64,000 nt of DNA from Amoebophrya sp. A120 (Eukaryota; Protista; Dinoflagellata). A program made the translations under genes and the position numbers. Below, piece after piece: positions 13,971-56,616 of the stretch. The notes beneath the pieces were generated by a model that saw only the letters and a list, made by a program, of their open reading frames with translations, searched no databases and was not told the origin of the DNA. How positions within the stretch are numbered: position 1 is the first letter of the stretch; each line of letters opens with the position of its first letter. The stretch covers positions 8,141,224 through 8,205,223 of the forward strand of contig CAJINV010000002.1 in the NCBI GenBank assembly GCA_905178155.1. Reading direction: 5' to 3'.

Positions 13971-16900
13971 ATGAGTTCCGCAAGCGACGAACTGCATGAG
14001 GAGGAGATGGGCGACGAGGGGAGTCGCGGCTTCACCTCGACGTCCGTCGGCGTGATGGATGAAAAATGGAAGAAGAAGGGCTACAAAGACTGGAGTGATT
14101 ACACCAAGAAGGACTGGGTATGAAATGCAAAAATGTCTGGGTCTGGAAACTTGTGATGCTGGGTGGCGTATCATGAGGAGGCCACAAGTGCTGGCTCAGC
14201 ATGACAAGTTTCTGAGCTTCTAGGTGTTGCTTATTCTGCATGACAAACTGCGTTTCTGCATGACAGAAAAATGGCGCTCTTAGGTAACGTGCATGACAGA
14301 TTTGAGAGTCATGCCAGACAAGCATGACAAACATGCACGCTTCCAGACCCAGACATTTTTACATTTGATACTGGGATCAATACTACAATTACGGTGTCTA
14401 CGCGTTGTCGCAGACCACGTCGGCAGCGGCCGGGGCGAAAAATGCCGGCTCGACTGGTTCTGGTACAACTTCCTCGAAGAAGAAGGGAATGAAGAAGGCC
14501 GCGGCCGCGACAAAGGCCATGAAAGCCGGTGGGAAAAAAAAGAAGATGAAGATGGCTCCGATGAAGAAAATGTCCGCCGCGAAGAAGAAGATGGTGCAGA
14601 TATGCTGAGTAAAAATTGATACCCACAGTGCTTACCCCACAGTCAATGAGTTGGAACTCTGAGGAAACACGAGTCCAAAAGTTCTTCGTTTGGGAGTCCT
14701 GCTCAACATATTTGGCAAGTTTCTATCTGTAGTGTGGTTCTGCATAGCAAGGAAAGCCGCACTTTTACAGAGCCATCTGCCAACATCCCTAGTGCAGTAT
14801 GTACAAATGATTCCAAAACACGACTACGACTAGAAAGCCTCGCAGATGCAAATCTAGTACATGACACCTCGGGGGTGGGTACGTTTTTTTGACAGGATGG
14901 CAGATGAAGATGAAGACCACCAAGAAGAAGATGGCAATGAAAATGAAAACGATGAAAAAGAAGTCCGCGAAGGAGAAACCCACCAAGAGCATATCAGAGT
15001 GCACACGCCCCCCCTCCCCCTCATGTGTCTTGCAAAAACGCAAATCATGCATGCGGCGCATGAATTGAAATTTCTCGTGCAACTCCAGTTTCGCTAGTGT
15101 TAATGCTTTTCTTGCTGGTGACGCCCTTCAAATGAGGGGGAGGCGAAGTTTTGCACTCTCATAGAGCAAGACGCTAGTGTACAAGGGAAAGCGACCAAAA
15201 ACCACGGGAGGCCTTACCAAGGCGGACCTGAAGGTAAACAAGCGGGTATCAAAATGAAAAGTGCCCTATTCTCAAAAGACCGAACAGTTTGTATTCTATT
15301 TCCATTGCATATATGAAGCTACTACATTTGTCACGCCAGCGCAGCATATCATACCAAGGCAGATACTTATTTGTATTTCCCTATGTATAGGGAAGCTTAT
15401 TTGCAGCATGAGCATCGCAAACGCAAACCCGTGCCCTTTCCGGGGTGCTTAGGGCAGCTTTTCAAGAGGATAGCGGGGAAAGGTGGTGTATCCTATGTAA
15501 AAACGTCCCCACACCATAGTCAAGATGGGAAGTCTGCAACACAAATCCCCAAGTTTTAGACATGACAAGTTTCCATCTGCAGTGTAGTACTGGCTGGCAA
15601 GGAAAACCGCATGAAAAAGCCATTTTCTCGTCCTGTTTACAGCATTACAAATTTCAAAACACGACTGGAAATGCCTCTCATGGAAGTGCGCATTACAAAT
15701 CTTCCTGTCATTGCACATTTGCATGACAACTCTGGGGTGGGGACGTTTTTACACAGGATATGGTGTCCAAAAAGGCCTCGGCCGCGGCCATGAAGAAGCC
15801 GCAGGCGAAAATTATCGTGAAGTGGTCTAGCTTACCAAGTGCAAAAATGTCTGGGTCTGGAAGAATTCATGTTTGTCATGCTTGTCTGGCATGACTCTTA
15901 AATCTGTCATGCTCGTTACCCAAGAGCTCCGTTTTTCTGTGGTGCAGAAGCGCAGTTTGTCATGCGGAATAGGCAACACCGAGGAGCTCAGAAACTTGTC
16001 ATGCTGAGCCAGCATTTGGAGCCTCATCATGAGACGCCACCCAGCGTCACAAGTTTCCAGACCCAGGCACTTTTACAATCCATATAGCTGCGTAAAGCAA
16101 GCGCGTGCGAGTCTCGGGTTCCAGGGCGTCTTCGTGCCGGTGGGGGGCAAGACAGAGCGGGGCCAGCGCCTCTACCGGGAGACGCGCATGCTGTACGACG
16201 CCGCCCGGGGATCGGGATCCGCGACCCCGAATGCGAACAATTCGCCGCAGGCCAGCTATTGAGAGGAAAAATCCCCCCTCCCCATATGGGAAACGAAATT
16301 TGTGATGCTGTATTTGAGTACACAAATCGACTTGTAATGCTAGAAGGCCAAGAGACGCAGCTGTGTTCTCGTTTGCAGGCAATTTGTCATGCTGTTTCCC
16401 ACTTCCAGCTGCCCCCTGTCATGCTGAAGATGCAAGGCCTTCCCACGCCAACCAGCACTACAGTCCGCATCTTTTCCCTTCTAGCATGACAAAGCTGATT
16501 TGTGACCACAAATGTGCATCACAAATCTCTAATTTGACTATGGGGAGGGGGGATTTTTCCTTTTGATACCAGCAAGGCGAAGGCGCAGCAGGTCCCTTCT
16601 ACGATGCGCAGCGGTAGTACCTTCCAGCTGCGTGCGGACGTCCTTCAGTATCCTGAGTAAAAACATCCCCACACCAGAGTCAGGATGGGGATTTTGCAAC
16701 ACAAACCTTGGAGTTTTGGGAGTCACGCATGACAAGTTGCACTCCGCAGTGTAGTGCAGGTTAGCAAGTGCAGCCGCATCACAGATTCATCTGCTCATCC
16801 TGTTCACAGCATCACAAATTCCAATACACGATTGGAAATGGCTCTCATGGGGATGCGCATTACAAGTCTTCCTGTCTTTGCAAATCTGCATTACAACTCT

Positions 16901-18834: not shown

Positions 18835-21800
18835 ATGTCGGCCCCTACTTCTGTGGCGAACGCGCTATCGCCTTCATTGGCGCAGGGATCTTTGGTGACC
18901 CCGGCGGAATTGGCAGCGCTGCTGCACGCAACCATTTTGGCCCAGAATATCTCGGCCACCGCGACGTCCGCCGAGATGACCACGGTGCCGCCGGTTCTGT
19001 ACGACGCGACGGAAGAAAAGGTGACGTGGACGGAGTATTTCAGCCCCTCGCAACAAGCGGTGGCGATTCTGGTGGAGTTTCTGCTGTGCGGGATCCTGTT
19101 CGGCACCTTCCTCGGGTACTGCGGGCTGCTGTACGTGAAAACACCGAAGACGGCGGAGGGGCACCGCCTGCAGCTCTCGCAGTGGGTCACCATGCAACTG
19201 ATGTTCTTCGGGTTCTACTGGTTTCTGCAGGCGATGTTCCATTTCGTGGACTACGGTGCGTTCGACGCCTTCATCACCACGCGCCAATGGGGCCAGGTCG
19301 CGTATGGATTGCAAAAATGTCTGGGTCTGGAAGAATGCAACTTGTGATGCTATTTTAATTTTTGGAATCTAGGAAAACCTGTATTGCATGAGCAGCAAGA
19401 GGCGTCCAGTTTTTGCTCCGCGGAGAGGGCATTTGTCATGCGGGATAGGCATCAAGATACCCGCAAAAAATCTGTCATGCTAGGTCATACATTACAGGCA
19501 TCATAGCCCATGCGAAATATGCATGACAAACCTGGAAATCTTCCAGACCCAGACATTTTTACAGTTGATATCGCGCCGGACGGCGCGATCTACGAGTTCG
19601 CGGTCCTGGATCTGGACATATCAAATGTAAAAATATCTGGGTCTGGAAGATTGCAACTTGTGATGCTATTTTTGGAATCTAAAAAAATCTGTATTGCATG
19701 AGTAGCAAACAGAATGCAATTTTTTCTACGTTGAGAAGGCATTTGTCATGCGGAATAGGCATCAAGAAGCCTTCAAAAGATCTGTATTGCTAGGGTATGC
19801 ATCACAGACATCATGGCTCATGCAAAACGTGCATGACAAGTGTCAGAATCTCCCAGACCCAGACATTTTTACAGTTGATAGGACACGCGGGACAACCACG
19901 AAAAGTTGCACAGCGAGGGCAAGCTCGAGTACGTGTTCCTCTACGCCGGCGTTGCGACGCTGATGCTCGCCATCTGGCACCTGTTCATGGCACTGATGGG
20001 GCGAAACCGGCCGCTGCTCTGGGCCTCGCTCCTCTTCGTTGCCTACCGCACGGCCTCCCACCTGGTCCTCTGTCTGCACGGCGACACGGCGGTGGGGTTG
20101 GAGCGCAGGTTCCTGCTCGTCGCCTGGTTCATCCCCTGCGTCTATCAAAAGTTGATGTGCAGCCGGCCCCAGAAGGGGGAAGAAGTGTTTGCATGGCAGA
20201 ACTACGTCGGCCACTCAATGGGAACACTTAAAAGATTAATACCACCTTGATGCATCAACATGATCAACAATAATCAAATTCTTGTTGTTGAGCCAAATTT
20301 AGATAGCGACGTCCGTGGTGGCACTAAACGTGCATAACTCGACGGACTCACCGAGCTGCTAAGAGGTCATGCACGACAATTGATTGCCATTGCGTTTGTG
20401 GTTGGATTAGCAGGACAGCATGGTATAATTTCCACGTGGAACAACAAACCTTTATTGCAATACAGACACTTTCTACTTCCTGGGGGCGGGGCTGCACTTT
20501 TCAGCTTGATAGCATCGATTTGTGCCTTCTTGCGACACTGATTTTCGCGTTTGGCGAGAAGAATAAATGGTGGAATGTGACGGAGATCATGGAGCAGCAG
20601 AGCCTGGCTGGGCGCGTGAAGAAGAGGAAGTTGAAAGCGCAGCAGGACCAGAAGATGTTCCAAGGAATCTTGAAAGGGCAGCGGGTGAGCCACAGCCATC
20701 CCATGGGGGCCGGCTACGACTACACAGCGGGAGCAGATGAAGATGGTGACAACTTGTATGGAGGGCACCAGAGGAGCTCGTACCAGCAAGCGCTTTTGGC
20801 CGCGGGTTTCGTGGGAGATGAGGAGGCTCCGCTGGAGGAGGAGGAGGTGACGGATGTCGAAGATGTTGCTCTGGGCGACGAGGAGGCCGCTCTTGACGAA
20901 GATGGACCGGGAGCAGAAGACCTGATGCAAGCCCCAGATGGCATTGTGTACATGACGGCGCCGGGGATCGACGATGCGGGGGCCTTCGAACCGCGGTCGA
21001 TCACGCACATCTCCCCGTACAACTCCGCGCAGAAAGGTGCTTTCCCGGCAGACGGGGCGCCGGGGGACACGAAGCGCGGCCTGTTCTCGCTGCTGGCGGG
21101 CAAGAGCAAAGGCACCTTCGAAACCCTGGCGCGCACCAAAAGCGATCTGGCGCGCGCCAACAGCAACCTGGCAAGCGGCAGCAATGGCAATCTCGGATCC
21201 GCCGCGGTGGTTCCGTTTATGGGTGTCGAGAAAAACCTCGATGTGACGAACGCCGGCTACCAACCTGCGACTGGTTCAACGTCGGGGGAGTTTTTGACGT
21301 TGTCCGCACTGTCTTCCGTCGGCGACCCAGAACAAAACCGGAAAAGATCGGCACGTCGTGCGTCAGATCTTCAAGGAAGTACACCCAGCAGTGCGGTATT
21401 TGAGCCCCCGCGGTCCGGCGGTGCGGACCGGCGGTCGAAGAAGAGCGCGCGCAACGAGAGTGTGCGTTCGCAGGACTACGTGGTGAGCTACCTCCCCTCC
21501 ACCGCCTCCGGAGACCCCTCCGGGGGCATGATGAGCGTCCCGACGCCCGCACCCGGTACGGGGTTCGATCCGGAGGGCGACCTGGAGAAAGCCCTGGCTG
21601 CGGACCTCAGCTTTGTGATGAAAGCGGTGCCAGCGGCAGATCCCGGCGCTGGTGCCTCCAGCGGGATGTTTCCCGTGGGCAAGGGCGCCCTGCAGTCCAT
21701 GCAGCAGCCGCCGCTGGAGAGCGTGCTGCTGTCCTACCCGCCCGGCACAGACTTGAGTGGGGCGCAGTCGGGGCAGAGCTTGCTTCTGAAATCGGCAAAA

Positions 21801-27900: not shown

Positions 27901-30900
27901 CTGCTCGTAGAGGTGAGGGAGAAGAGACATCTCTTGTTATCCAGTGTGTACAACTAGAAAACGTCCCCAATGATCCATGGCCAAGAAGATGGAAAGTAGA
28001 TACACAAAACAGCAAGTCGTCCTGACTGTTGCGCATGATGACACCTTTTGGCTCTAGTGTAGTAGAAGTCGAGGTTAAGATTACCTCGTGCAGTCGCGTC
28101 ACAAATCGGCTGCTTCTACAACATGTTGATGTGAGCACGACAATAAATCCCCAGATAGTTCTCGTATCCGTTAGAAAGCCGCGCTTTATCTCGTCATGGA
28201 GAAGTCTGGGGAGAACTGTTGGGGACGTACTATTTTTGTACACAGGATACTTGTACCGGTCCAATGTGATCGACATTCTGCAAGCCGTGACGCTGAACTT
28301 GGAATACTACCCGAGGGAGCACTTGCCCTGGTTGCTAGAAGCGAGTTCCGGTAGTCTCGACAAACTTCCCGTGGACGACGCCATCGTGTTGCTCGAGATC
28401 CTCGCTGACGTGTTGACCAACGGAACGGGTGTTTTCCTGGTCAACAGCGAGCAGGAAGAATCAGCTCGACGTCGTGGAGAGCACCTTTTGGCAACGAGTG
28501 GTCCAAGCGCACGAGAGGAAGACCGAGAGTTGTACAGCGCCTTCTCCAGCACTCTCCAGACCCACGATCTGCTGGATATGATTCACGGCTTATGTGATCG
28601 GGTGTTGCTCTCGATCAAAGCGGCGCCGAAGTCGCCGTGGCGCACCGACTGCGACAAGGTTGCGAAGGTGTTGGGCAGTTGTCGCAGGATTCAGCAGTCC
28701 CGCTTCGGCGGCCGGAGCCTGGCGAATGTGGACGATTTTTTACTGGAAACGTGTATTCTGCGCCCGCTCCCCTTCACGCTGTTGGAGGACAGCAGCACGG
28801 AAGACGGAAGCAATTTGTTTCTGGAGTTGCTGCAAGAGTTCTGCGCGTTCGGCTTGCAAACGCGGCAGAATTACCTGATCCGCGCGACGTGCCACCGCCG
28901 CCCGCAAATATTGCAGGCTTTGCAACAGCGCCTGGACGCGTATTTCCACAGTGTCACGAGCGGCTTCCACAGGAAGTACAACACCCGGAACGCGGTCGAG
29001 TTGGTGAAAATCTTCGCTTCCCTCGGGATCGACAGCAAGCACGGACGCTGGCTGATCGACGAATGCCTCTTCTTGGACAGCGACATTCAGGCGATGGTCG
29101 CGTTCGGAAACAGGTACTTCAGTAGCGCGGCGCGGAGTGGTATCAAATGCAAAAATGTCTGGGTCTGGAAGAATGCAGACTTGTCATGCATATTTCTCAT
29201 GACCCCTGATGCCTGTAATGCATGACCTAGTATCACAGACATTTAGAGGTCTTCCTGATGCGCCTTCCGCATGAGAAATGCCCTCTCCGCGTAGCACAAA
29301 CTGGACCTTTCTTGCTGGTCATGCAACACTAATTTTTTTAGAATCCAAAAACAGCATGACAAGTTGCATTCTTCCAGACCCAGACATTTTTACATTTGAT
29401 AAGTGGGAGAAGTACGCAAAAGAATTCCGAGGGGCTTGGTGTTGCACCAAGTACGAGCAGCTTGCAGGACGAGGAAGTGATCCAGCTGATCTGGAGTTTG
29501 TCGGAGTTGAATTGGAACCCGACCCTGGCGCGGGGACTACTGAAATATATCACCGGGAAGAGGCGACTCCTGCCTGAGGATGATGGAATTCATCTTTACT
29601 TCAAAGACGAATTATCTTCCACACCGCAGGTCGGCAGCGACGTCGACCGACATCTTCACGCCGATGGTGCAACAAGGACGTCAGCGGAGAAGTTTTTACC
29701 CGGTGAAAACCAGGACCTCGCTGATGTTGAGCCACCAGAGCCAGTTTCGCAAGAGGCCAACTTGAAACTTGCGTTTTCCCTGGCGCTGCAGCTGGTGCCG
29801 GAGCTGGTCGGGGACAAAACCGGCATTGTGCCACTTAAGCTCGTGGAAGAGATCATGCGAGGTGGGGAGGTGGACTTGTTTGACCCGAATGTTGCGGCGC
29901 AACGTGATCCGGTGAGCTTTGCAGCAGCGAACAAAAAAATCCCCAAAGACTCGTGGATGCACTTGGCGCAAACGGCTTTCGCAGAGATCGAAGAGAAGGA
30001 CTTTACACACTACCGTGAAATTATTCTTTCTGGTGGGAGAAATGAAGGCTCGACCACGAAGATGAAAGACGAAGAAACATCAGCTCCGGTAGCGTCGGGA
30101 GAAACGACAACGAAGAGCTTTTACGGCGACCAAGATGTTGACCATTCTTCTGTCGTGAGAACAAGCTGTAGTTCTACTGACTCAACAAGAAGAAAGCAGG
30201 CGACAGAGCGAAGAGTAGCAAACTTGCAGTATCAAATGTAAAAATGTCTGGGTCTGGAAGATTGCAACTTGTCATGCTAAATCTGCAGCATGCAAAAATC
30301 TGTGTTGCATGAGCCCAATCTGTTTATGCTAGCAAAGGGCTAGTGCGCTGTGGACCCCCAGGATCAGGTAGACGAGGTCCCAGACCGAAGTGGTAGCTAG
30401 GCGCTTAGGGTGAACTATGTATGTAGCGCTTAGGGCCCTTCCGTACGGCCAATATGTATGCCCGCAACGGGGTTCGCCTATGTCGGTCATTTGTATGCAA
30501 GGCGTTGGGTTACCCGGTCGGCAGAGCCGATCCACAACGAACGAACGAACGAATGATTACCAAAAGTCGTCCAGTTTTGACCAAGTCGGGAGGGAGTTTC
30601 TCATGGAGGATAGGCATTAGAGAAGTGTCGCAGAATCTGTCATGCTAGGTCCTGCATTCCAGACCTCATGGGCCATGGAAAAGCAGCATGACTAATCGCG
30701 GACTCTTCCAGACCCAGACATTTTTACATTTGATATGCAGCAATACGTGACAAACATCAAGCACGACTTCTTCCGTTCGGATCTGTACCCGGCGAAAGAC
30801 AGAAGCCAGAGCCTGGCGTCGTTGAACAAGGCAAACACCATATCCTGAGTAAAAACGTACCCACACCAGAGTCAGGATCGGGATTTTGCAACACAAACCT

Positions 30901-33667
30901 AGGAGTTTTGTGAGTCACGCATGACAAGTTTCAGTCGGTAAGGTAGTGCAAGTTAGCAAGGAAAGCCGCATCACAAATCGATCTGCTGATCCTGTTTACA
31001 GCATTACGAGTTCCCAAACACGATTGAAAATGCCTGTCATGGGGTTGCGCATCACAAATGTTCCTGTCATGGCAAATCTGCATGACAACTCCGCCTGCTA
31101 CAACCTCGTGCTTCCACTTTTTTGGATGGTTTTTTACTGGGGGTAGAACTGTGTCATAGTTCCTGCTTCAAACCCTTTTACTTTTTATTTTGGTTCCCTC
31201 GGTGCTGAGACAGGGAGTTTGCACAGAGTTATTTCTACCTAGATAACAACCAACTCACGTCGCAGCCGTCCCAGGAGTTTCGGTTGTTGTCTCTCGGTAG
31301 AAATCACGCTGTTCAAAAATTTCTGTTTTGGAGTTTACCGGGTACGCGGTTAAGGTTTATCGAGTTGCGTAGGTCTGTTTATCGAGTTTACCGGGTCTGT
31401 TTATCGAGTTGCGTAGGCTACTCGGTAAATTTACCGGTCTTGCGCAGCAATGTGAATCCAATTTACTTGCTGCTGCTATGTATGTTTTTGTATGACAGCA
31501 CGGCGCCACCTTTGGCATGGCTTCGCCTTTCGTAAAAATGTGTGGCGATTTGTATCAGTCTCTGCGCTTCGTGGTTACTGCTGCACTTTCTTCGTAAGTA
31601 CCTGCTGCCTCGTAAATGGAGCTAGATCGCAAATTCGTGCGCTCCTCATTCTGAAAAAGCCGATCTTCCCTGCCTTCCCATCGTGCCCACGTAGATGTAG
31701 TTCTCTACCCTTTTACTTCCTCCTTGTCGTGTAGTTTTGTCTTGTTGCTTGCCTCATCCTTGTAGCGCTAGATCGCGGATCCCGCTTCCTCGCAGGGGCA
31801 GCTGTTTTTTTTCCGCCTTGCCAGCGGACCTGTGGAGGGGTTGGGGTTGCAGCTGCGGCTGTTTGCGTGTAGATTTATCGTGGGTCGGCTACGTTGTAGG
31901 AAAGGGCATCTATTTTTGTATGTGGGCGTTCCTGATATTGCCGCTCGGGCTTATCCGTATCGCTAGCTGTGTCTCTAGTTCTTTATTGGTTTTAAGAAAG
32001 TAGCCAGGCCCTTTTTGCGATCTCCGGTGGAGAATCATAGCACGCCACTCCTAATTTAGTCCCTGGCCCGGTCTGCTAATCCGGGTAAGTAGCAACATTT
32101 CCGTGCTTCTCCACTAAATTGCTTTTTGGTGTCTGCCCGCTCGGGGAATAATTACATAAACGGCTCCCGCTTGTGGTGGTCAGAGGCGTTCGGGTCTAGT
32201 TAGTCCCTAGCTGCGCGCTACTCCTTCAGTACGTGCGGGCTCCAGGTGCTGCGATCACCGGCAGGAGTCTAACAACAGCGAACATAAGGACGTTAGATTT
32301 TTGATTGCTCTACATTACAAGACCGGCACTTGTGTCGGCCCGCCGAAGTTTCGCGCGCGGGTTCAGCAGTCTTCTTTCTCGCGAAAAAGGTGAGTCTCCT
32401 GACCCTTCTGGTCGTCACCATTCCGCCGGTGTCTGTGCTTTCATTCGGGCGCGTCACCCACCTCAGGACCTCAGGTTAAGAGTTTGTCGACGTAATTTAC
32501 AAAGGGACGCCCTGCCCTTAGTTTCCCAACATGACAACTCTGGGGTGGGGACGATTTGACACAGGATACACCAACCGGAAAAGAAAGAACACCAACTCGC
32601 CCCCGTCCGTGAACGACTCCCTGACTGTATTGTGAGGAAGAATCCACCCTCCCCATACCAAACCGGGATACTTCTGAAAATTTGTGATGCTGATTTGAGA
32701 CCACAAATCGTCGCTGTATTGCATGAAGGCAAATCTACAGGGTCCGCCACATTCTATAGGCGGTTTGTCATGCTGTTGCTCCTACAGCGTAGACGTCTGT
32801 CATGCTAAGCGCCTAGGCCAAAACCTGTCTACTGTGGCTTGGTATGGGCCTGCAGTCCTCGCCAGCAAGACAAATCTGATTCGTGTGCGCAAATCCAGCA
32901 TCAGAAACATCCTTTTGATATGGGGAGGGGAGATTTTTCCTCTCAATAGACTGCCAACCGGCAAGCGATGCGAATCAAGGAATACCCTTATGACATTTGG
33001 CTCTCGGACGCGTTGGTTTCCTTGAAGATCCCGCACGTAAAGAATTTCGTCGTGGACAACCTGCACAAAGTCTGCATCGCCTTCCCGGAGTACAAGACGC
33101 TGGTCGACTGCCTCGACGCGCGAGACTTGCTCTGCACCACCGGGCTGAACACAACGGACCTGAGGGTTACCGGATCGGCGATTCTGCGCCGCCGACAGTT
33201 GATTGACCGAGGATGGTATGGATTGCAAATGTGTCTGGGTCTCCTGGAAGATTCTAAACTTGTGATGCTGTCTGTGGATTCTAAAAAAATTTGTATTGCA
33301 TCATGACCAGCACCAAGAGGACTCCAGTTTGTGCTACGCGGAGGGGGTTTTTCTCATGCGGTGGAGGCATCGCAATCGCAAAGCCCTCGAAAAATCTGTG
33401 ATGCTAGGGCATGCATCACAGACATCATGGGGCATTCAAAATATGCATGAAAAACCTGGCAATCATCTTCCCGACCCAGACATATTGCCAGTTGATACAT
33501 GGGTCGTGCTGGAAACCGACCTTCGCATGCTGCACACCAAAATGCGCGAAAAGTGCATCCGCAGCTACGTCAGCGAGCTCGTTGGCGATTTGGCGCCGTT
33601 GAAAGTGCACAAGTTTACGGGCCAGGATCAAATGGCCGCGGAAGTGCTGGGGGAAGAGTTTTTTTGA
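24916..33667 (+). CDS. Helical-repeat (HPR/OPR/FASTK-like) protein with C-terminal RAP domain
   Basis: Repeats such as FTARGTANVLYALAKL, FEPQQLSACLYSLGK, FETKDLCAVVWGFAHA; spliced C-terminus TGSAILRRRQLIDRGWVVLE is RAP-like. Six elements removed. Start uncertain (ORF is open from 24565). Confidence 0.8.
27938..28249. mobile_element. Degenerate introner family B
   Basis: TATCCAGTGTGTACAA...TTGTACACAGGATA; TSD CTTGT. Confidence 0.85.
29141..29401. mobile_element. Introner family A
   Basis: Family A TIRs; TSD AGTGG. Confidence 0.92.
30230..30735. mobile_element. Introner family A carrying a nested insertion
   Basis: TSD TGCAG; about 240 bp longer than sister copies. Confidence 0.9.
30313..30552 (+). 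mobile_element. Putative SINE or 5'-truncated LINE with (AACG)4 tail
   Basis: Absent from sister family A copies; flanked by ATGA repeats; hairpin GTCGGC-AGA-GCCGAT just before the AACG tail. Confidence 0.6.
30841..32568. mobile_element. Introner family B carrying a 1.44-kb nested insertion
   Basis: Family B TIRs at both ends; TSD CACCA; frame restored (ANTNRKRK). Confidence 0.9.
31092..32529. mobile_element. Unclassified non-TIR insertion with an 11-bp direct repeat
   Basis: CATGACAACTC at 31081-31091 and 32530-32540; internal TTTATCGAGTT repeats at about 31330-31420; no long ORF. Confidence 0.75.
32628..32948. mobile_element. Introner family C
   Basis: TSD GACTG; 321 bp, sister of 47466-47786. 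Confidence 0.9.
33217..33497. mobile_element. Introner family A
   Basis: Flanks GATGG/CATGG; splits the RAP motif GW|VV. Confidence 0.9.
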
Positions 33668-38047: not shown

Positions 38048-39727
38048 ATTTGTTTTTTTTTCACGCATGATTTCCTTGTACGTGGTTTTTCGGAGACTTT
38101 AAGCAGCAATTTATACTCTGCGACGTCCTGCTCTAACAACTTGTTTTACTAGGAGTTTTTAAAAAAGCCTCGGGGTGGAAAAACACGTAAAAAAGAATCA
38201 ACCTCTACCTCCGTCGAGAGTTTCATACTACCTATTGTATTTCCCCATCGCTTGCCATAGCCTCGGTTCTCCTCTTTGAGTCTCTCTCTTCCACAGGTGC
38301 ACCTCTTTACCTCCACCTTCCCCGACGTGTAGAAAGTTTGTTTCCAGGAGGAGACACGCATTATTTATTACCTACTGAATTTTCCGTACACTATCATTTC
38401 ATTTTCACCCCACCAGCTGACAAACCGAAACACCAAGTCGCTTTGATTGACCGCTGTGCCACTACTGGCTGATTATTCTGCATTCTCTTTCGAGATGGGG
38501 TTGTGACGCCATTTATTCTTGCCGCCTACACTAGAAGACCCTTCATGGATGAGTAAATTGATTCCGTTCATCGCATTTCCTTCACGAGCACAAGAAGAAG
38601 AAAACCCGACTCAGCGTACGCATATTTTCGAGCTACAAGCGTTCGTTCCAGCTTTTTGTTAGCTGCAAGCGTGTTGAGGCTGATGTTCTTCTCTGAAGGG
38701 TCTGATCCTAGGGAGGATGAAGTTTCGAGTTCTGATGTTAAAGAGATCGCGGGAAAAGTGGCGTCGAGAAGTGATGTCAGACGATCATGATCTCGCACTA
38801 TTGCACCGAAAAATTGGTAGCTGCCCGTTTCAGTCATCAGAACATCCACGCGGCAAAGCTGCAAGATGCCAAGAAAGGAAGACGGCAGGTTAGAAAGATC
38901 AACAGTTGTTTCCTCCAGGAAAAAAATTCATCGATTTTTTTCAGCGTGGATTTTTGCCAGGATGAACGAGGGTCAGAAGTAGTGGCGTTTGTAGCAAGCA
39001 ATGCGCCGAAAAAGTTCTTTTTACAATTTATATGTTGCGAAGGGTCCTCGTGCGTGTTGGTTCAAACCGCATGGCTGTATCTATGATGATGGTCTTCTAG
39101 ATGACGTATGTGAATTTGCGAAAAAGATCTTCATCGGATCTGGCGTGCGAAATTTGCTATGAAAAGTTTGTTCTCTTGTGCTCGGACGTTCACCGTTCCG
39201 CTTTTGCAGCCTTCATGCAAAGGAGCACACTTTTTCCTGATAGATGAAGATTTAGTTCCGGGTATATGTAAGTTTTCTGCAACTTTTGCTCCTCCTGTAC
39301 TGTTTTCCATTTTATCCGTAGACGGAGAATTGTTCCGTGGCCTGCAGCGTCAAGATGCCCTTGGTGTCATGTGTGCATCAAATGGCCGACCATGTTTTGT
39401 TACAGCGAGCTTGTTTTGGATGTTTTGATGCATCGTTCTCGTTGCATGCCGGAGCTAAAAGTAGTGGCTCCGATGCTGTCCTGCTTCTAGATTTCCGACT
39501 TTAGTGTTAGCGCTATCCATTTATTCAATTCTCTTCATGGCGATTATTTGCGGTACAAACTCTACGCAAAACTTTTGATTTACGTTGAGGTCGACGAAAC
39601 GGCTGCGCTGGTCCTGGTCCGTCCCTTTCGTCGCTTTGAAGATTCATAATTTTTGGAAGACCGATAATACATTAATACAACATCACTGCAAAAAATAAAG
39701 TAGTGACTCGCCCCCTGTCATAAAAAG

Positions 39728-42700
39728 ATGGGTCAAGGCCACAGTAGCCACGACTCTGCTGGAGTCTTTATTGAGCTGGACGAGTACTCTGTGTATCCAG
39801 GGTCGGTTTTGCGCGGCCGCATCCACGTGAATGTGACCAACCAGGTTACCCAGCTGAAGTCTCTCAGCCTGAAACTCACCGGGTATGAGGAAACCAGCTG
39901 GCGCACGGTCCACGTCCGGCGGCAGCGGAAGGACAGAAACAACAACGATAACTTTGGGACCAATCGCGAACACGGTCTTTATCAGGATAATTTCAATCAG
40001 GACCACCCGCAAGGAAGAGACAGAGACTTTGGTGGTGATGAAGCCAGCAAGTTTAAAAACATTTCCGACGAATACGAGGAGATCGAAGAGATCAAACACC
40101 ACGACGGGCGCCACGACTTTTTCAAATTGACTCGTCCCGTTTCCAACGGCGGGGCGTTTTTGTCCTGCGGCCAGTACTCCTTCCCGTTCGAAGTTTACCT
40201 CCCCGACGACCTGCCGGGGTCCTGCACCGTGGGGCGACACCCGAAATTCGATCCGCACCTGCGCCACAACGAGAAGTATTTCCACGCGATGTGTAAGTAC
40301 AAGATCAAGGCGTTTCTCGAGATAGTGAAAAACCCGGAGGACCGGTCCTGGTTCAGTTCCAGGGAGAAGACCGTGAAGTGCTCGCAGGAGTTATTACCGT
40401 GAAAAATGCCCCCACCCCTGAAATTGCAAAAATTTGTGATGCGAAGTTTCCGAATGAAAACTTTTTGTCATGCATGAAAGGAGTATGAATCTTTCTGATG
40501 CAGAGTTTAGGCGTATGTAGCATTGCTTGGATGACAAGCGCCGCTTTTGCTGGGATCTGATGCAATACAAATCTTCACTATTCACGATTGGAAATAATCT
40601 GTGATGCTGCTAGATGCAAGAGGGCGAGTGTTTCTGTTGGAAAAGTTTGCAATGCAAATGCTCCCAAGTTCGGGGGTGGGGGCGTTTTTCATGGTGATAG
40701 GAGTTCCAGATCATTAACCGCTGTCCGCCCGCGCGGGCGTGCTTGAAGCAGATGTCCACGGAAATCAAGATTTGCGGCTGCTGCTGCAGTATGAAATGCA
40801 AAAGCATCGTCATTAGTATAAATCGCATGACAAATCTCCTCAGCGTGAGAAATAGAATTTGTAGTGCGGATTCAACTTGAGAAAGAAATTTGTAATGCAT
40901 GAATGCGATTAGTACGACTACGATACTTTTGCACAGGATATGCGGCAAGGGAACCTGCGACGTGTGCGTGCAGATGGGCCAGGATGCGTTCCGGATCGGG
41001 GACCAAATTCAGGTCCTTGCGTATCCAATGTTGCTGAAAAGTGCGATGTCCAGGCGAAAAAGCGCCATGCGTATCCGATGTTGTTGTTGAAAACGAAAAG
41101 TGAATATCTCATCTGAGGCAAATAATAAGTTTCCAAAAGGTCGTCGCGGTCGGGACGAATTCGTGTTACTAGCATATGCAAGGAGAGGAGTGCGTCCATT
41201 TGGAGCCTTCGCATTGCAAATACTTTCGAAATAGTTTTGGGCAGCAGGAGATCGCGCTTTTCAACATGATATGGCGAAATTCGACAACTCCAACACCACT
41301 GCGGAGTTGAACGAGCTGCGGCTCACCCTGCATATGCTGGGCAAAGCTTTCTCGGTCTGGGAGTGCAAGACTTGAGCTGCTTGTTTGCCATGACGGTAGA
41401 GCTTTGCTCGTCGTCCAGGACGAGGGCCTCTTGATTGTCATGCGAGCGCGCTGTTCCTCACGCGGAATGCCGCGCAACACGTACTTTTTTGCCGCTCATA
41501 TATCGATTTCTCATGCTTGGCCGTGCACGACATACTGTAAAAAGAAAAAAAGAAAATGAAAAACTGTCCATCTTCATTCACAGCGGAGCATATAGTACAA
41601 CTCTCGTCCACACCCAGACAAACATATTTGCATTTGATACTGCACCGCGTTATCCAATTGCGTTCGACCAACACGAATGAGCAGTACAACGAAAGGAAAA
41701 TGATTTGCCAGGACGTGAAGCCCGGCTGCCCGGCCGGCATCACCAAGGAGGAGATGTTTTACATGACCCTCCCCGGACAGACGACGGAGCGGGGAAATTA
41801 CAACTACGATAATGGTGCGGACTCCAACGTCGTGCCAACCTGCCAGGGTGGCTTAGTGCAGGTGTACTACGAGCTGGAGGTTCGGGGCTCCGTGACGTGT
41901 GCCAACGATCCGGTGGTGTCTTTACCCGTGTTTATTTACAGCACGCCCCCGGTGTACATGCGGCCGCAGATCGCCGATTGGAAGCCCCAGGTTAGTTCTT
42001 CTTTTTTTTCTGTTTCTAATGCGCGCGAACCTAAATAATGCGAGCAGGACATTTTCATTGAATGAAAAAATATGTTGTATGCATGGATTCGTCAATGGGC
42101 GTCGACTTCGTGCAGCAGGTCTGTGTGAAATGTGCCATAGTCCACTGTGTCCGCATGTAGATACTCTTCATGAGAAAGGGTCGGCATCGAGACAGATGAA
42201 GGAAGGGCAGTTGGTGAAAAAAGTTTTGATATCATCTTTCAACGCACGGCAGGTTTTCCAAGTGACTGTGGTGTCCGACATTCCTTGCCAGATGGGGTTT
42301 ATGGGCCGCAAATATTTCCGGGTCTGGAAAGTTGTGATGCTCACTCTTGAGATACATCTGCAGATGCACAGCATCTAAGCATAACAAATTCATTGCCAAA
42401 CCAGCAGTTGTGTGCATTGCGCATCGTGCATGACAAGAAGTTCCCCACCCCCCTCCTCACGGCTGGTAGGCCGATCGGCTGACGAGGTGGGTCGGAGGAT
42501 GTCGCTACATCATTCGTTTATTTTCGCATGGCAGGCGAGTGGGCCCCCTTGAAACCCAAGCAAACAAGCAAAGTTTTCAATTGTGCCAGTTGTAGCCAAG
42601 CATCGCACGTCTTGGAATCGTCCAGACCCAGACATGTTTGCAATGCACAGGGTTCGTCAACGTGGTACCAAAATCTGAAACCTGTCCCCTTCGCCTCAAA

Positions 42701-45852: not shown

Positions 45853-48800
45853 ATGAAGAACAATGGGATGAAGATCCGTGGGCGTGGCTACACTTTTTTT
45901 CTCTCCTTGCTGCCACTCGTGCTGGTCGTGGAGGCAACTGTTCTGGTGCCTTCCAGGAGGGATTTTTACTCAAGAACAAGGGGCGGCAAGAACGAGACAC
46001 TGGACAATGAGCAGGATCCGAAAAACGGCACGGGCCAGAAGATTATAACCCGCTCAAGTGTAGTTTTTACAGTTGCAACCGTTACAAAATGATTTCGGCA
46101 TTTTGTACTATATGGACCCGCTAAGAAGCACTGAATGTGGATTCGCGTTCAACAACTCTGTCATGCAACACACTGAATAATGTTTATAGGTGCTGTGGTC
46201 TTGATTTGGATCACGACCTACCGTTCCAAATCGCTGTTTTTCACACGATAGTGACAGTTGTGATTGTAAACACATGTTGAGCACGTCATAAGAAAAGTAG
46301 GTGTATCTGATCGGACTCCAGAAAATGAAAAAGAAATACGTCCACCGGAACAAGAAGCGGCAAAAAAAGACGAAGGGCCGAGAACTGGCCTTGACAAGGA
46401 ATATTTCTTGCCTGTGGAGCGATACGAGTCCCTGTTCCGCCGGGAACTGGAGCGCCTGACCTCGGTCACCTTCAAGCTATCTTACAGGAAAGTACACGCC
46501 GCGCGCTCAATACCAGAAAAAAAGCTCGATTTTGTGTTGGTGTTTTTCTGGTGTCACAATGCTCAACTTCTCGTACTGCTGCTGGTGCAAGAGAAACATG
46601 GATAAGAAGAAGGTACTGTGCGAAAAAATATATAGGTGTGATCGTGATGGTAAAAAAAGGGGCCACGCAAATGTGTTACGCTGAACACCCAAGAAGGGGC
46701 ACAAAAAAGAGCATGGCAATATTAGTAAATAATAATTTATTTATATGATACTAACGCAGCTAGTGGCTGAAGAGGCTGACGTCGTGTGCTTTCTCTTTCT
46801 TGATAGACGCTTACGTCGGAAAGGGCCCCCTGCCAGGTTCACCTCAGCATTCCGGAGCTATCAAATGTAAAAATGTCTGGGTCTGGAAGATTGCAAGGTT
46901 TGTCATGCACATTTTGCATGACTCCTGATGTCTGTGATGCATGCCCTAGCATCACAGATTTTGTGAGGGCTTCCTGATGCCTATACCGCATGACAAATGC
47001 TCTTTCCGTGTAGCAAAACTTGGACTCTCTTTGCTGCTCATGCAATACAGATTTTTTCAAGATCCAAAATCAGCATGACAAGTTGGATTCTTCCAGACCC
47101 AGACATTTTTACAGTTGATAGGAGCTCGAATCGTACAATGGGTCGCAGTATCAAATGTAAAAATGTCTGGGTCTGGAAGAATGGAAGCCTTGTCATGCTT
47201 GTCTGGCATGGCCCATGATGCTTGTAATGCATGACCCAGCATCACAGATTTTTGGAAAGCTTCCTGATACCATTTCCGCATGACAAATGCCCTCCTCGCG
47301 TAGCACAAATGTGGCTCCTCTTGCTGGTCATGCAATGCAGAGTTTTTTAGAGTCCAAAGTTAGCATCACAAGTTCCAACTTTCCAGACCCAGACATTTTT
47401 ACATTTGATACGCAGAAAATACGTGGAGCCACGACCACGACACCAGGAAGGTCTGCCGCAGGAGATATCGTAAGGAAAAATCCCCCCTCCGCATATTGAA
47501 AGCGTATCCGTCTGAAAATTTGCGATGCGCATTTGTGACCTCAAATCCTGTCTGTCTTGCAAGAAGGCAAGTCCAGAGAGCGCCCCGCATTTTGCAGGCG
47601 GTTTGTGATGCTGTTGGGCTTAGAGCATAAACGTCTGCCATGCTAGGCACCTACGTCAAAACCTCTAGACTGAGGCTTGGCATATGCCTGCAGTCCTGTA
47701 CTGCAAGACAAATGTGATTCGTGTATGGAAATCCAGCATCAGAAACGTTGTCTCGATATGGGGAGGGGGGATTTTTCATTTTAATTGGAGACGTTCCGTT
47801 CTTTGTAGACGCCCAGCCCGGCGATATACTGTACGACTTCTGCTACTCCAACTATTTGGAAGATCTGAAAAACCACTACGATGCTAGCAACCTGCCCCAC
47901 GCGGCCCTGCCGCTGGGCAGCAGCCTTGTGCAGTGGGACTTTGGGTTGCCAGATCGACTATGGATTGCAAATGTTTGGGGGTTAATATCTGGAGAGATGC
48001 AAACATTTCATGTTCGTCTTGTAGGACGACGCATCGTCAAGGTCAACCTGTCATGCGTGGAGAGCAGCGTTGGTCTTTTTTCTTCATAGTAGAAAGGTGG
48101 TGTTTGATGTACGTGTCATACTTAAAGGAAATAATGGGGAGGCATTGTTCATCTGATGCCCTGTCATGCGATGCTGTGGCATCATGCTATGTATAGAGAC
48201 TACATTCTGCATGCAAAAAAGAAAGCCTGCGTCTCTACAAAAGTTGCAGCTGTCTTCCAGCAGACCTTCCGGATCGATGTTTGCACTTGATGTCGACCGA
48301 ACTTTTGGTATCGCCGGGAGGTGGAAGGGAGCGAAGAAAATGCCGAAGCCGAAGTACGGGAGCAGCAGCAATTCGTGACTCACAATTCCGCTTCTCATGA
48401 TCGTAGTGGTTCTTCCCGGTCGAGTGATAATGTAAAGATAGATGATGTGAACAACGGCACTTTTTTTCACGACAGCAGCAGCCCCCAAGAAGAAACAAGC
48501 GCCGATGAAGAACATTATGTAGAAAATGAAAAAAATGTGCATAAAAATCCGACGTCTTTCTTGCTTGCAGCGGAGGTAGGAGGCGAAACGTTGCACAACG
48601 GGCTGCAAGAAGTGGGGATCGACTCTGGAGGCGGAGGGAATATGAAACGCCAGAACGTCACCAGCTGGGTGCCCGCAGATGTTGAGGTTGACCAAGAACA
48701 GGTCGCGGTAGAACAAGCAGCTCCCTCCTTCACCAATATCATGGCTACGAAAAAAAGGAATACAAGAACTGTTTTCAAAATGATGAGTTCGGTTCCCAAG

Positions 48801-51800: not shown

Positions 51801-54800
51801 ATTTTTGATTTTGATACGCGGAAACACTGCTTCTCTTCGCGGCTGCTTTGTCGGGCATGCAACTCAGTAGCCTCAGAGTGATGGACCGCCCTCCTTACAC
51901 ACCTTACCGCCTTTATGGGAGTGTCTCGTTGGAAATCGTCAAAATAAAAGATTAGTAAGGTACCGTGCAGAAATCGACCCCAGTTGGACCCATAGTTTTA
52001 GTCTCTAGGCGGGGTATGATAAATGAATTGTTTAGAGACACTACTTGTTTAAGCGAATGCGAATCTGCCATACTGTGTAGGGCAAAGAACAAGAAGTGCC
52101 AGTGCTTCCCTGTCATGCTGGTCAGCTCTCCTCCTTTCACGCCAACCAGGACTACAATCGGCCTCACATCATTCTAATGCTCTTGGTTTGTGGATTGTTT
52201 CACGTTGCCTTGTGATTTGCATGTGCCTCACGCATTGCTTGGTCAGGTGCTTCCAAGTCTCACGATATCGCAGGGTGCACGCACAAACGAGATCGCCGGG
52301 GCGCGGGGGGGGGGATGTGCAATCAAGAAAAGGAATGCCTCTGGGGCGCTTGTTGTTGTTCAGTATTTGGGTCGCATCTCATGCATTTTATATTTACAGA
52401 CTATTACCAGCTTGCCGATTTCTACCCAGACACTGCCATAGGAATGCTAACCGGGTTTCGTTGATGCAAACCTTGGCGAAGAGCCGGGCCGTGCGCATGG
52501 AGCTCTCGCGTCTTGCCGTGCCGCTCTCTTTGGAGTCCAGAAGCTGGTCTAAAGAGACAGAAGAATCGCTCGATAAGGCACTAGCCGGAATAAGACTTCA
52601 GCAGGGGGCGTTGTTGGGAGCCCTGTTGCGATGGAATCCTCTTGCGTTTCGGTCAGACGAGACTTCCTCGCCGAGCTTCGGGTCTTACACGGAACTGGAT
52701 GTGTTTCGAGAGTTTCACCTCGGATATGATGAGCAGGACGTGAGAACGCAGATGACGCTAGCAGGATTTTCGCCTCGGAGTTGGCTTTTCCTCGACCTGC
52801 CTTTTGTGCTTCAGCAAAACCCCCGTTTCCTGCTGATGACGATGACCGACCCCGCTGTGTGGAACGATGAGCACCATCACAAGGAGATGCTGCGCTATTG
52901 GGACAAGTGGTTTGGCCGCCAGCAGAGGTGGCGGGAGTCCGGCGGCAGGCAAGAAAGGCCCAGGGAAATATCGGACACCCACGTGGTCATCCTGGAGCAT
53001 GAGGACAGGCAGAGGCAGAGGGAGAGTCCGGAAAGCGCCATGGACTTGTTTGCAGTCGCGCTGCGTGAGGCCCTTGCTGCCGCCTACTTCGTTCAAGGCC
53101 GGGAGCGGATACTGGATTTTCTCTCTGTCGCCATGTACCGGATCCCAGGAACGGTGACAGTTAAACCCCGCGATGATGCGGGCTGTAGCTTGTTTACTCG
53201 TAATTATTACCAGACCTGTGGTGTGCTAATTACCGAGCGCAGCCGCCAACCACAGTATTCCTATCCAGGAGAGGAAGGGTCCGGCAACAGGACTTCAGCA
53301 AGACTGCTGGAGATAGAAGAGCCCCGAAGAGCGGTCATGGGCCCTTGGCCCGTCGTGCATCGCTTCTTTTTGCCTCCCGCAGATGCCGTTGCGGTCCAGG
53401 AGAGGGTGAAAGCGTTGCACATTCGGCAGGGGAGTTGGCGTCCCCCCCTGGAGCTGGCACTGCCGAGGCATCGGTTGGAAGTGTATGTTGGGCCTTTGCG
53501 CAACAGCAACGTCTACACCACGTTTGTTTCCGAGGATATGCCCGATGAGGCCTTGTGCGATGCGCCGCTGTATGGCGTGCACGTTCGGCTCATAGAGCTA
53601 AAAACAAGTCATTCAAGAACACCTCCAGACGACGACGCGGACGGCGAGGGACGAAGACCAACGCCGCCCCCGCTTCGTAGTGCCCCTGAGCGGGAGGTGC
53701 ACTTTTTTCCAGCAGAGGACCACAATTTGCTGCAGAAGTATATGCGAGACCTGGATGATTTGTCGATGTCGAGAGACCACGCTCTTTTGCCCGGAGCGGT
53801 GAGTCCTCGAGGAGGGCGTCCGTTTTCTCTACTGGGTGATAGTTCTGGTAGAGGTTGGGACAAACATCCATTTGATCCTCATCCAGGGAGTGGCGTCAAA
53901 TTTAACCGATGGGGAGGGCTGAACTCGAGGCTCGTGGAGTTCTTGCTGCTGATGCAGCGGTTAATGCAAAAGGAGCTGCGGGAACGAGGCCAGTTGCCGG
54001 TTGGCTGGCGCGAGAGTCTGCATGCATGGTTCCGGCTGCGATTTGGACCCTCCGCGGACGGGCGGTATTACGATTATTCGCCTGACATGGCATTCTTTCT
54101 GGGTTCGGGCAGCATAGATGTCGCAGAACTTCTGCGGATGCAAGGTCTCACCTGTGACAACCCAGACTTTCGTCGGGTCCAGATTGCAATATTCTACGAC
54201 GCCTACCATCCGTCCCAGGTCGTGAAGGTGGGGAACACGACGAAGCAACAAGGCAGTTTTCTCGGGATCATGGACACACCGAAGTTCTCTGAACCTCCGA
54301 GAGAGGAAACGCCATTGCTTTCTCTGCACGCGGTTGTCCATTACTGGCTAGACGCCTTCCCGCCCGGCCCGGAAGAGGTGGAGTGGATGTTGAGGGGTGG
54401 CCAGGCGCACGGGGAAACGAACAGAACAAATTACCTCCTGCATAGTTTTGGAACGTCAGCGGCTAGCGCCATGTTGATGCCAGTGAAAAATCTCGACGTA
54501 GACGAGGCGGGTAAAACTCTTTTTTCGGGGAATTTAAACTTTTCCGACCCCGTGCCCAACCTGAGCTCGAAACTTTTTGTCGGAATGGTTAGGGGCAGCA
54601 GCATATCCTGAGTAAAAGCGTTCCCACACCATAGTCAAGATGACAAATCTGCTAGACAAATCAACAAGCTCTGGCTGTTGCGCATGACAAATTTGGCCTC
54701 GTAGTGTAATGCTTTTCGGCAAGTTCACCAGCGTCACAAGTCTCGCACATCATGGTGATTGGAGCATCCCAAATTCCGCAATACGACGAAAGCACGCTTC

Positions 54801-56616
54801 TCATGGGGCTCCGCATGAGAAAGATTTCTAGCGTGCAGATTTGCATGACAACTCCGCTGATGGCAGTTTGGTGTCCGCCTGACCCACCCGCCCGGCGCAC
54901 CAAGCCATCTGCGGCCGTGGTGCAATGGGGGGGCAAAGTGTGTCGCATTTTGTTTAGCATGACAACTCTGGGGTGGGGACGTTTTTACTTCGGACACAGC
55001 ACAGAGCCTCCTCCAGTGGGGGCGGGCGCGCGTGAAGATCACGAGAAGAACCCCGCCCATGGTCGTGTCGGACAGGAAAAAGATAAAGAGCCCAGTCGAG
55101 GACGTGCCGACGCGGGGGATCACCAGCAACACTCTATCCTGGCGCGTCCTCCTGATCCTGCCACTGATAGTAGACGAGGAACTCCAGAAATACAAAACTC
55201 GTCTGGTCAAGCTCAACAACCACTTCTACTAAACGTAAACGCGACTCCTGAAGACCTTGTTCATTCGACAACGACGAGAATACAAGGTTTAAGACCGAGT
55301 AGACCACCAGGTCGAAGAACATCGAAGATGACATCAATTCCCACGCGACGAGAAAACACGAGCAATCGGACGAACGCAACGGGCGGCCGCAGCACCTCCA
55401 GTGGTGGAAAAAATACCTCCAATGCTGCAGCCTGCTGTGCAGGTGAAAATGACAATGGAGGTGAAAATGACAATGTAGATCGCGGCATATCACGGCGTCC
55501 TTCATCACGGCCGTCACCTTTGCGTCGATACTTGGTGTGTGCGCGGCTGTGGTTGGGATCCTCCTGGTTGCGCAGTGCCTGGCCGCGCGCGCCGAGCGGC
55601 AGCGCCGTCTGGCCTCGGGCGAGCGGAATGTTGAGACGAAGCTGGAGCGTGCACGGGAGCGGTTTCTGCGCGAGCGCGAGAAGCGGCGAAAGCTTCGACA
55701 GCGGCAGCAGCGAAAGTTGAACCTCGTAGAAAAATTGCAAAACAGGATAAAAATCAATACACACAAGCAGGGGGATGTGGATCAGGATCACGAAGATGAA
55801 ACCCGGGTGGAAAGGGACAACGTTTCCGGCGGTCTGGAGCAAGACGAGGCGTTGCGAGGGTCACCTTCAGGAGGTGTCAATTTAATATCTCAAGAGGCGC
55901 GAAATGATATTCGAGCAGGGAGTGCGCATCTCCGGGTACCAGAAAGCACGGGTAGGTCCCGTAGCCCGCCGGGAGATCCAGTCGTATCACCTCCGGCTCG
56001 TCCCACCTCAAACGCGGCAACAGTTGCAACAAGGAAGTTAAAGACCAGCGTAGTAGACGGAGCAGGAAAAACACTCCCCGCACCAGCCGCACCACGACGC
56101 GCGACGGAACGCCCCCCGCGCGCACCACCATCAAGCACGCGGGACAAGCTGACAAGCGACAACGTTTTAACCTTGCGGCCGAAAGAAGAGAGAAAAAGGA
56201 AGAACGCTCCTCTTAACTCCTCGTTTCCCTACCACGTGTGGGAACAACCTCCACCGCGCACAGTAGAGCCCGTGCGGGAGCAGGGGCGCGACCGCCTGGA
56301 TAGGGAGGGTGCTTTTCTTCGCCCCGATACTGCCGGTGTGAGAAACCAGGTTCTCGTGCAGATTCCGGAAGATGACAGCAGCACGGCAAGAAGAGCCGGA
56401 GCGGCACCTTCGGCGCCCGTTTTCACTCTGTCCGGGACCCACGGGGGTGTGGGGGAGCAACCTTCAGATGCGCTCGACGTGTCCTTTCAAGTGCCACGAA
56501 CGGCTGAGGAGTGGGAGCGGTTGCAAGCGTTCCAAGGGTACGGAGCAGAGGATCCGATCCCCGCCTCTACCCTACAGCCTGTAGTACATCGGGGTCCTCG
56601 TGCTGCAGGAACGTGA
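45853..56616 (+). CDS. Large orphan protein with possible signal peptide and C-terminal TM helix, split by many introners
   Basis: ORFs 45853, 46408, 47721, 48321, 49530, 50769, 51221, 52188, 54752 and 55537 join after element removal; junctions near 50890-51220 and 55261-55535 and the start are tentative. Confidence 0.55.
46044..46290. mobile_element. Eroded introner
   Basis: TATAACCCGCTCAA...TTGAGCACGTCATA; TSD eroded, but removal of element+5 is in frame. Confidence 0.6.
46478..46805. mobile_element. Eroded introner
   Basis: TATCTTACAGGAAAGTACACG...CGTGTGCTTTCTCTTTCTTGATA; flanks CAAGC/GACGC. Confidence 0.7.
46859..47120. mobile_element. Introner family A
   Basis: TSD GGAGC; inverted relative to 19619-19880. 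Confidence 0.92.
47149..47410. mobile_element. Introner family A
   Basis: Family A TIRs; TSD CGCAG. Confidence 0.92.
47466..47786. mobile_element. Introner family C
   Basis: TSD GGAGA; right end reads AATT. Confidence 0.88.
47959..48292. mobile_element. Degenerate introner family A
   Basis: TATGGATTGCAAA...TTTGCACTTGATG; TSD TCGAC. Confidence 0.82.
49032..49220. mobile_element. Short introner
   Basis: TATCCCAGAGAAAAAA...TTTTTTTCTGTTGGATA; TSD CAGTT. Confidence 0.82.
49301..49635. mobile_element. Degenerate introner family B
   Basis: TATCCTGTGTAAAAA...TTTTTACACAGGAGA; flanks TGTGG/GGTGG. Confidence 0.82.
50468..50819. mobile_element. Degenerate introner family B, apparently inverted
   Basis: AAAAGCGTTCCCAC...GGGGCGTTTTTCCTGCGGATA; left boundary approximate. 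Confidence 0.6.
51465..51816. mobile_element. Degenerate introner family C
   Basis: TATCGCGACGAAAAAT...GATTTTTGATTTTGATA; TSD CGCGG. Confidence 0.8.
51914..52440. mobile_element. Eroded 527-bp introner
   Basis: TATGGGAGTGTCTCGTTGGAAATCG versus right-end reverse complement TATGGCAGTGTCTGGGTAGAAATCG; removal of element+5 is in frame. Confidence 0.7.
54604..54996. mobile_element. Introner family B carrying a 102-bp nested insertion
   Basis: TSD CAGCA; right end reads GGACA. Confidence 0.88.
54855..54956. mobile_element. 102-bp hairpin-forming insertion with a 12-bp direct repeat
   Basis: GCATGACAACTC at 54843-54854 and 54957-54968; internal inverted repeat GATGGC..TTGGTG / CACCAA.GCCATC. Confidence 0.75.

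Follow-up and report, generated by a model that had tools for sequence, protein, structure and literature searches.

The 1,438-bp insert in a TIR introner of Amoebophrya sp. A120 is very probably one member, non-coding and truncated at its 5' end, of a repeat family whose insertion site is G^CATGACA in TIR introners. [quoted passage not shown] The family is designated X. Nine copies were analysed: two in the window, that is, the whole stretch of 64,000 nucleotides of contig CAJINV010000002.1 (positions 8,141,224 to 8,205,223 of the forward strand), and seven elsewhere (L001 to L007).

The filled introner and its host gene

The window is crowded with TIR elements of 250–320 bp that have TAT…ATA ends and mostly 5-bp duplications. 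They match the Amoebophrya introners described in the available text of PMC7789003. The family-B element at 30841–32568 (no strand assigned) would measure 279 bp if empty. It shows the features of a TIR introner: TAT…ATA ends with TIRs of 32 nt, a 5-bp direct repeat CACCA (30836–30840 and 32569–32573), multiple copies and a reading frame that is restored by precise removal. Within it, an exact CATGACAACTC at 31081–31091 and 32530–32540 (+ strand) forms the left and right target-site duplications of the 1,438-bp insert, 40 bp from the right end of the host. The first-pass annotation had described this insertion. The sister copies that it named as empty, 15489–15760 and 61196–61474, indeed contain a single site copy each. 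Two more empty family-B sisters, at 1299 and 16649, have a variant site. With at most one mismatch, the CATGACAACTC motif occurs 14 times in the window, compared with 1.24 expected occurrences.

The insert is a composite of about 310 bp of X family sequence and an extra piece of 1,126 bp, termed Y. On the + strand, it consists of a 5'-truncated X body (31092–31347), the multicopy piece Y with two GGTTAAG at its borders (31348–32473) and the conserved 3' end of X (…GGGACGCCCTGCCCTTAGTTTCCCAA, 32474–32529), which abuts ^CATGAC without poly-A. The X body is 96% identical to L005 and L007, and both reach further 5'. A long ORF is absent, as annotated before; the longest overlapping stop-to-stop frame has 108 amino acids. 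The internal repeats were also found, as three TTTATCGAGTT at 22-bp spacing (31355–31417). The initial CGC, earlier taken as the diagnostic start of the element, is a truncation point, since longer relatives extend 5' of it. Aligned with the L007 insert, the window copy begins at its position 1,121. A strong internal hairpin, missing from the earlier description, is located at 31207–31329 on the + strand, where its z-score is −6.9; the − strand gives −3.7.

The 3' part of the host gene (28026–33667, + strand) encodes protein P0121 with a FAST_1 domain and contains five TIR introners, including the filled one. The 275-amino-acid exon adjoining the insert is 100% identical to the A120 protein P0121. 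Removal of all five elements with one duplication each yields a single open frame of 839 codons. Its translation coincides with P0121 over the last 764 residues, and the junctions are included in this identity. The host frame is open only when the entire filled introner is taken out, and the public gene model drops the whole intron in frame, in agreement with the predicted removal of a 1.7-kb intron. According to the available text of PMC7789003, A120 gene models were made from transcript alignments owing to non-canonical sites. Because P0121 matches and the models rest on transcript alignments, the 1,733-nt filled intron is likely spliced out of the host message, as judged from the public model. 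The raw RNA run X11 has zero reads on the exons or the insert, with reads on the family-A TIR only. Run X7, an RNA run by guess, provided a 714-nt contig on the exon 30743–30834 and similar depth on the next exon; the joint was not among the matches listed. The flanks of L003, L006 and the element at 54604 read through once the host element is removed. Those of L002 and L004 are uninformative due to other elements close by.

The family-A introner 30230–30735 in the P0121 gene has 506 bp, compared with the usual length of about 262 bp. Some 280 bp of it (30314–30590) have neither a sister match nor an obvious duplication. Pairs of family-A introners were observed in exons only about 30–55 bp apart (19303–19881, 46859–47410 and 2793–3370). 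Pfam host genes in the window code for an XRN exoribonuclease, an arrestin-domain protein and an AN1/FYVE zinc-finger protein (67–3830, 39707–42035 and 58343–58873). The XRN fragment is 98% identical to an Amoebophrya sp. A120 protein.

Copies, ends and duplications of family X

Metagenome contigs were scanned with the shared 3' end of X, using a pattern without any target base. Eight loci (L001 to L008) were obtained, and seven of the eight matches run straight into CATGAC. The random targets that had been set as a refutation of site specificity were thus not observed. The exception, L008, overlaps the X family in the 21-base pattern alone and looks like a chance match. L001 to L007 all come from one assembly series. 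The 3'-end pattern had no match in viral contig and genome contig collections, and patterns for the introner TIR and the hairpin loop had none in the viral contig collection.

All copies share a fixed 3' end (…GCCCTGCCCTTAGYYTYCCAA). The 5' ends are nested and variable, with 33–1,430 bp of X in the other copies. L001 to L007 have inserts of 44, 339, 501, 128, 771, about 40 and 1,430 bp, all nested at the 3' end; they form three subfamilies, 72–96% alike. Their duplications measure 20, 13, 18, 9, 19 and about 17 bp, the last of these with one mismatch, and at least 15 bp in L007, where the contig ends. With 11 bp at 31081 and 17 bp at 60243, the duplications of all nine copies lie in the range of 9–20 bp, and all start at CATGAC, that is, at the 3' junction. 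This variation removes the fixed 11-bp att-like core that had been proposed. X ends with CCAA right at the target, and a poly-A or simple-repeat tail is absent. In the two cases checked, the 5' microhomology at the junctions is a single exact base.

The second window copy (60243–60309, + strand) is the third insertion in the window and was missed by the first-pass annotation. It contains the final 33 bp of X (60260–60292) between 17-bp duplications CATGACAAATTCACGGA, and the last 29 bp of the insert at 31081 match 60264–60292. Its host is a TIR introner of family D (60049–60342), which interrupts an open frame that is restored on removal. More short truncated X copies follow CATGACAAATTCACGGA in sequencing run X1, visible as loose ends. 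The summed contig depth in this run is 3,523 over the last 46 bases of X and about 29 for unique pieces; summed depth is not a copy number, and X1 is possibly the source of the window itself. The longest X copy, the L007 insert of 1,430 bp, is non-coding. It holds five GCATGAC-type motifs, four of them reversed. The longer X sequence of L007 may have captured introner sequence or may be able to target itself.

Target site

The junction G^CATGAC is present at all nine X copies and G^CATGACA at eight of the nine. X inserts in a single orientation relative to the motif, with the 3' junction at the identical base (9/9). The hosts belong to family B (31081), family D (60243), an A-type family (L002, L004, L006) and family E (L001, L003, L005, L007). 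The automatic TIR and TSD finder gave hosts for six of ten sites. For 60243 and L001, the host was delimited manually, allowing one mismatch in the duplication. The hosts at L005 and L007 are incomplete because of contig ends, and alignment gave their families. A target CATGACAACTC specific to family B, as first assumed, is not supported; the target is G^CATGACA, preferably TTG^CATGACA[AG]ATT, in four families. TTG^ precedes seven of the nine filled sites and 26 of 141 empty motif sites (p 0.0004), and CATGACARATT follows at six of nine filled and 21 of 141 empty sites (p 0.001); these p-values overstate independence because four of the nine copies share one family-E site. As background, CATGAC begins at 0.0008 of the strand positions in the window.

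The motif GCATGACA occurs 61 times in the window, with 2.6 occurrences expected. Of these, 42 are inside the automatic TIR-element mask, which is incomplete and covers 12% of the window; several of the remaining 19 fall in TIR copies absent from the mask. An element that cuts this motif lands mostly in introners, as the motif is concentrated in TIR elements. Introner families with differing TIRs (e.g., 1299, 2009, 29141, 32628, 40392 and 60049) mostly start with TAT, end with ATA and have 5-bp duplications. Several GCAT[GCT]AC[AG] repeats are present per copy. The shared ends and repeats suggest one transposon superfamily with a common putative binding motif.

A different insert occupies the same family-B site at 54855–54957, in accordance with the earlier annotation. 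Its 103 bp, GC-rich, are flanked by a duplication of 11–12 bp (54844–54968, + strand; host 54604–54996). Membership in family X was not confirmed, since the resemblance is weak and 77 of 2,000 shuffles score equally well. The insert folds no better than shuffles. It may derive from a distant family or from a different RNA that the same machinery has copied.

RNA structure of the 3' region and the extra piece Y

The hairpin 31207–31329 is kept in diverged subfamilies, and the L002 copy has a z-score of −3.3. On the + strand, six pairs are changed on both sides among six aligned rows, which are related and include the one that provided the structure; 3 of 500 shuffles reach this value. For further pair types, the value is below the shuffles, of which 497 of 500 are as high. 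RNAalifold favours a different fold for these rows. Bases CGTCCC of the loop could pair with GGGACG close to the 3' end of X. These pairs are invariant; a pseudoknot is possible. Two similar segments, GGTAGAAC and GGTAGAAA (31140–31160 and 31295–31320), are each able to pair with CACAGAGTTATTTCTACC, which gives two alternative folds.

Y is missing from all X relatives L001 to L007, and BLAST of Y against these loci gave no match. Its first part consists of 22-bp repeats, in which flanking X sequence is reused. Several diverged copies of Y are present in run X1. The short joint 31347–32474, without Y, has a depth of 183 in this run, compared with about 29 for unique pieces. A second X copy in X1, about 85% identical (27 differences in 175 letters), enters Y at 32330, so that it has only the last ~150 bp of Y, and leaves X at 31350 via 34 letters. 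These joint letters partly repeat flanking X in rearranged form. Y in the window copy is possibly a later, nested insertion into X. The two junctions would fit two independent 5'-truncated Y insertions at one X site. Alternatively, Y may belong to a long X variant of which other copies are deletions, or may be a GT..AG intron of the X RNA.

Discussion

The footprint of TPRT by non-LTR elements consists of a fixed 3' junction, 5' ends that vary, and duplications that vary in length and start from the 3' junction. X copies show the common 3' end with variable 5' truncation and the duplication of variable length from the 3' junction. In the proposed sequence of events, an endonuclease would nick TTG^CATGACAR in its bottom strand, at the G/C step marked by the caret. 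The 3'-OH released there would prime reverse transcription of a structured RNA, starting at its …CCAA end. Synthesis would often stop early, and the top strand would be cut 9–20 nt downstream. The motif repeated inside introners may be a protein-binding site of these DNA transposons. Because of this repetition, insertions would fall into sequence that is spliced out, spare the TIR ends and cost the host little. The earlier proposal of a second mobile system with site-specific insertion into introners holds for the insertion, given G^CATGAC in four families; for its splicing together with the host, it is the public protein model that skips the filled intron. Of the two mechanisms then considered, the truncated 5' ends and the 9–20 bp duplications favour the retroelement and disfavour the tyrosine recombinase.

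In 157 window ORFs, P0121 and 74 ORFs of L001 to L007, Pfam gave no mobile-element domain, that is, neither RTs and endonucleases nor transposases and recombinases. A motif search bearing on the RLE clades, which have a C-terminal PD-(D/E)xK endonuclease, was negative across all six reading frames of Y and the L007 insert.

The same TPRT chemistry could be provided by a Penelope-like element (PLE) with a GIY-YIG endonuclease in place of an RLE or APE non-LTR element. This is unlikely. Truncation at the 5' end and variable duplications also fit PLEs, and X has a structured 3' region. PLEs are present in protists according to the available text of PMC8557442. Target-specific families are mostly RLE, Tx1 or R1 elements, as far as covered by the consulted part of PMC4640811. 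Rfam gave no match in the window insert and nothing above the gathering score in L002, L003, L005 and L007, with six weak sub-threshold matches; a hammerhead was thus not found in these inserts. Self-BLAST of the inserts, covering the last 1.43 kb of X, revealed no long internal direct repeat that would represent a pseudo-LTR.

Less probable still is an RNA that is reverse-transcribed into breaks made by another enzyme, such as the introner transposase nicking its own motif. Cut-and-paste transposases cut at the element ends, and the X sites are 40–200 bp inside the elements. The same junction base in all nine copies and the single orientation are as expected for a nickase encoded by the element. 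Such a borrowed specificity would agree with the presence of the motif in unrelated-looking introner families that share TAT…ATA ends, and with the fact that no element-encoded endonuclease was seen.

The fixed 3' junction together with the variable 5' ends and duplications effectively excludes a deletion origin and a recombinase core. Internal deletion is a frequent origin of short non-autonomous elements, and the 1.7-kb copy could be the ancestral form of family B from which the 280-bp copies arose by deletion between the 11-bp repeats. The same sequence occurs in families A, D and E with other duplications, which makes this very improbable. An assembly artefact is equally improbable: none of the contigs listed spans the whole stretch, yet run X1 contigs match 31325–31658 and 31629–31777 with zero differences. 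Weakest is the case for a Crypton- or DIRS-like element that a tyrosine recombinase would integrate at an 11-bp core. The window copy agrees with it in having neither TIR nor poly-A and in its exact 11-bp direct repeat. Integration of a circle, however, yields fixed ends and a fixed core, and the duplications follow the target sequence for 9–20 bp with a different left end in each copy. An LTR element with TG…CA taken from the motif was ruled out, as the duplications match target sequence over as many as 20 bp.

A TPRT-driven, sequence-specific retroelement in a non-autonomous DNA transposon has counterparts in animals. Tx1L inserts into the non-autonomous piggyBac element Tx1D (PMC4494074 and PMC6719617, consulted parts). 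Tx1L and Tx2L of Xenopus (Tx1 clade) resemble X in being sequence-specific and in having such a target. The Tx1 clade was described from animals and targets one transposon family, whereas X comes from a dinoflagellate relative and targets a short motif in at least four families. Unlike those of Tx1L, the targets of X are introns of coding genes, and X is known from non-coding copies alone. The crocodilian SINEU-3, with 313 of 347 copies flanked by Mariner-N4_AMi in the available text of PMC4494074, is likewise a non-coding retroelement with a strong preference for a non-autonomous DNA transposon. SINEUs have a snRNA-derived head and an old target; X has no Rfam match above the gathering score and targets introners, and its copies are probably 5'-incomplete. 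A SINE would have a Pol III RNA-derived head at a defined 5' end; even in L007, the longest copy, Rfam gave nothing above the gathering score.

RLE-type elements (CRE, R2, R4, NeSL and Utopia) share with X the precise 3' junction, variable 5' ends, a multicopy target and a structured 3' region. Their targets named in the consulted part of PMC4640811 are rRNA, snRNA, spliced-leader and tRNA genes, transposons, microsatellites and telomeres; introners do not appear in this list. Transposons are also listed there among the targets of target-specific elements in general, and Utopia is described as occurring in SAR, with 20-bp duplications possible. The X copies show no RLE or RT.

The hosts of X correspond to the Amoebophrya introners of Farhat 2021 and Gozashti 2025, introns of about 250–320 bp with TIR and direct repeat. 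Targeted insertion into these introners is not described in the available text of either study. The intron analysis of Farhat 2021 was limited to introns of 40–1000 bp (PMC7789003, available text), so the filled 1.7-kb copy would be left out. Gozashti 2025 (PMC12130899, available text) assigns some A120 introner families to non-LTR elements and reports LINE peptide matches (I-Jockey, RTE-BovB and Tad1) for three large families. These matches may represent coding bodies nested in introners, without a link to X. Short X motifs are absent from supplementary file 3 of Gozashti 2025 and from the supplement of Farhat 2021. A literature search, with most subscription papers and Repbase outside its scope, gave no report of a retroelement targeting introners. 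The strategy is known from Tx1L and SINEU-3; the literature searched contains no case of a target motif common to introners that are spliced out.

X extends the safe-target strategy of site-specific retroelements to introners, a target that is abundant, still spreading and removed from the mRNA. LINE-like matches in catalogues of TIR introners may stem from filled introners. The short, well-defined putative nick site TTG^CATGACAR and the structured 3' RNA end should lead to the autonomous RT-endonuclease in the public genome, in a field of gene insertion that seeks new site-specific TPRT enzymes. A more speculative possibility, to be held tentatively, is a nest of three tiers. X would cut a motif that introners need for transposase binding or non-canonical splicing, and Y would be another site-specific retroelement, with ^GGTTAAG of X as its target. 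Introners would then be unable to mutate the motif away, and X would leave the transcripts with them. GCATGACAA, present in introner families whose TIRs differ, is a candidate functional motif. It is a lead on what mobilises Amoebophrya introners and on how their non-canonical introns are spliced.
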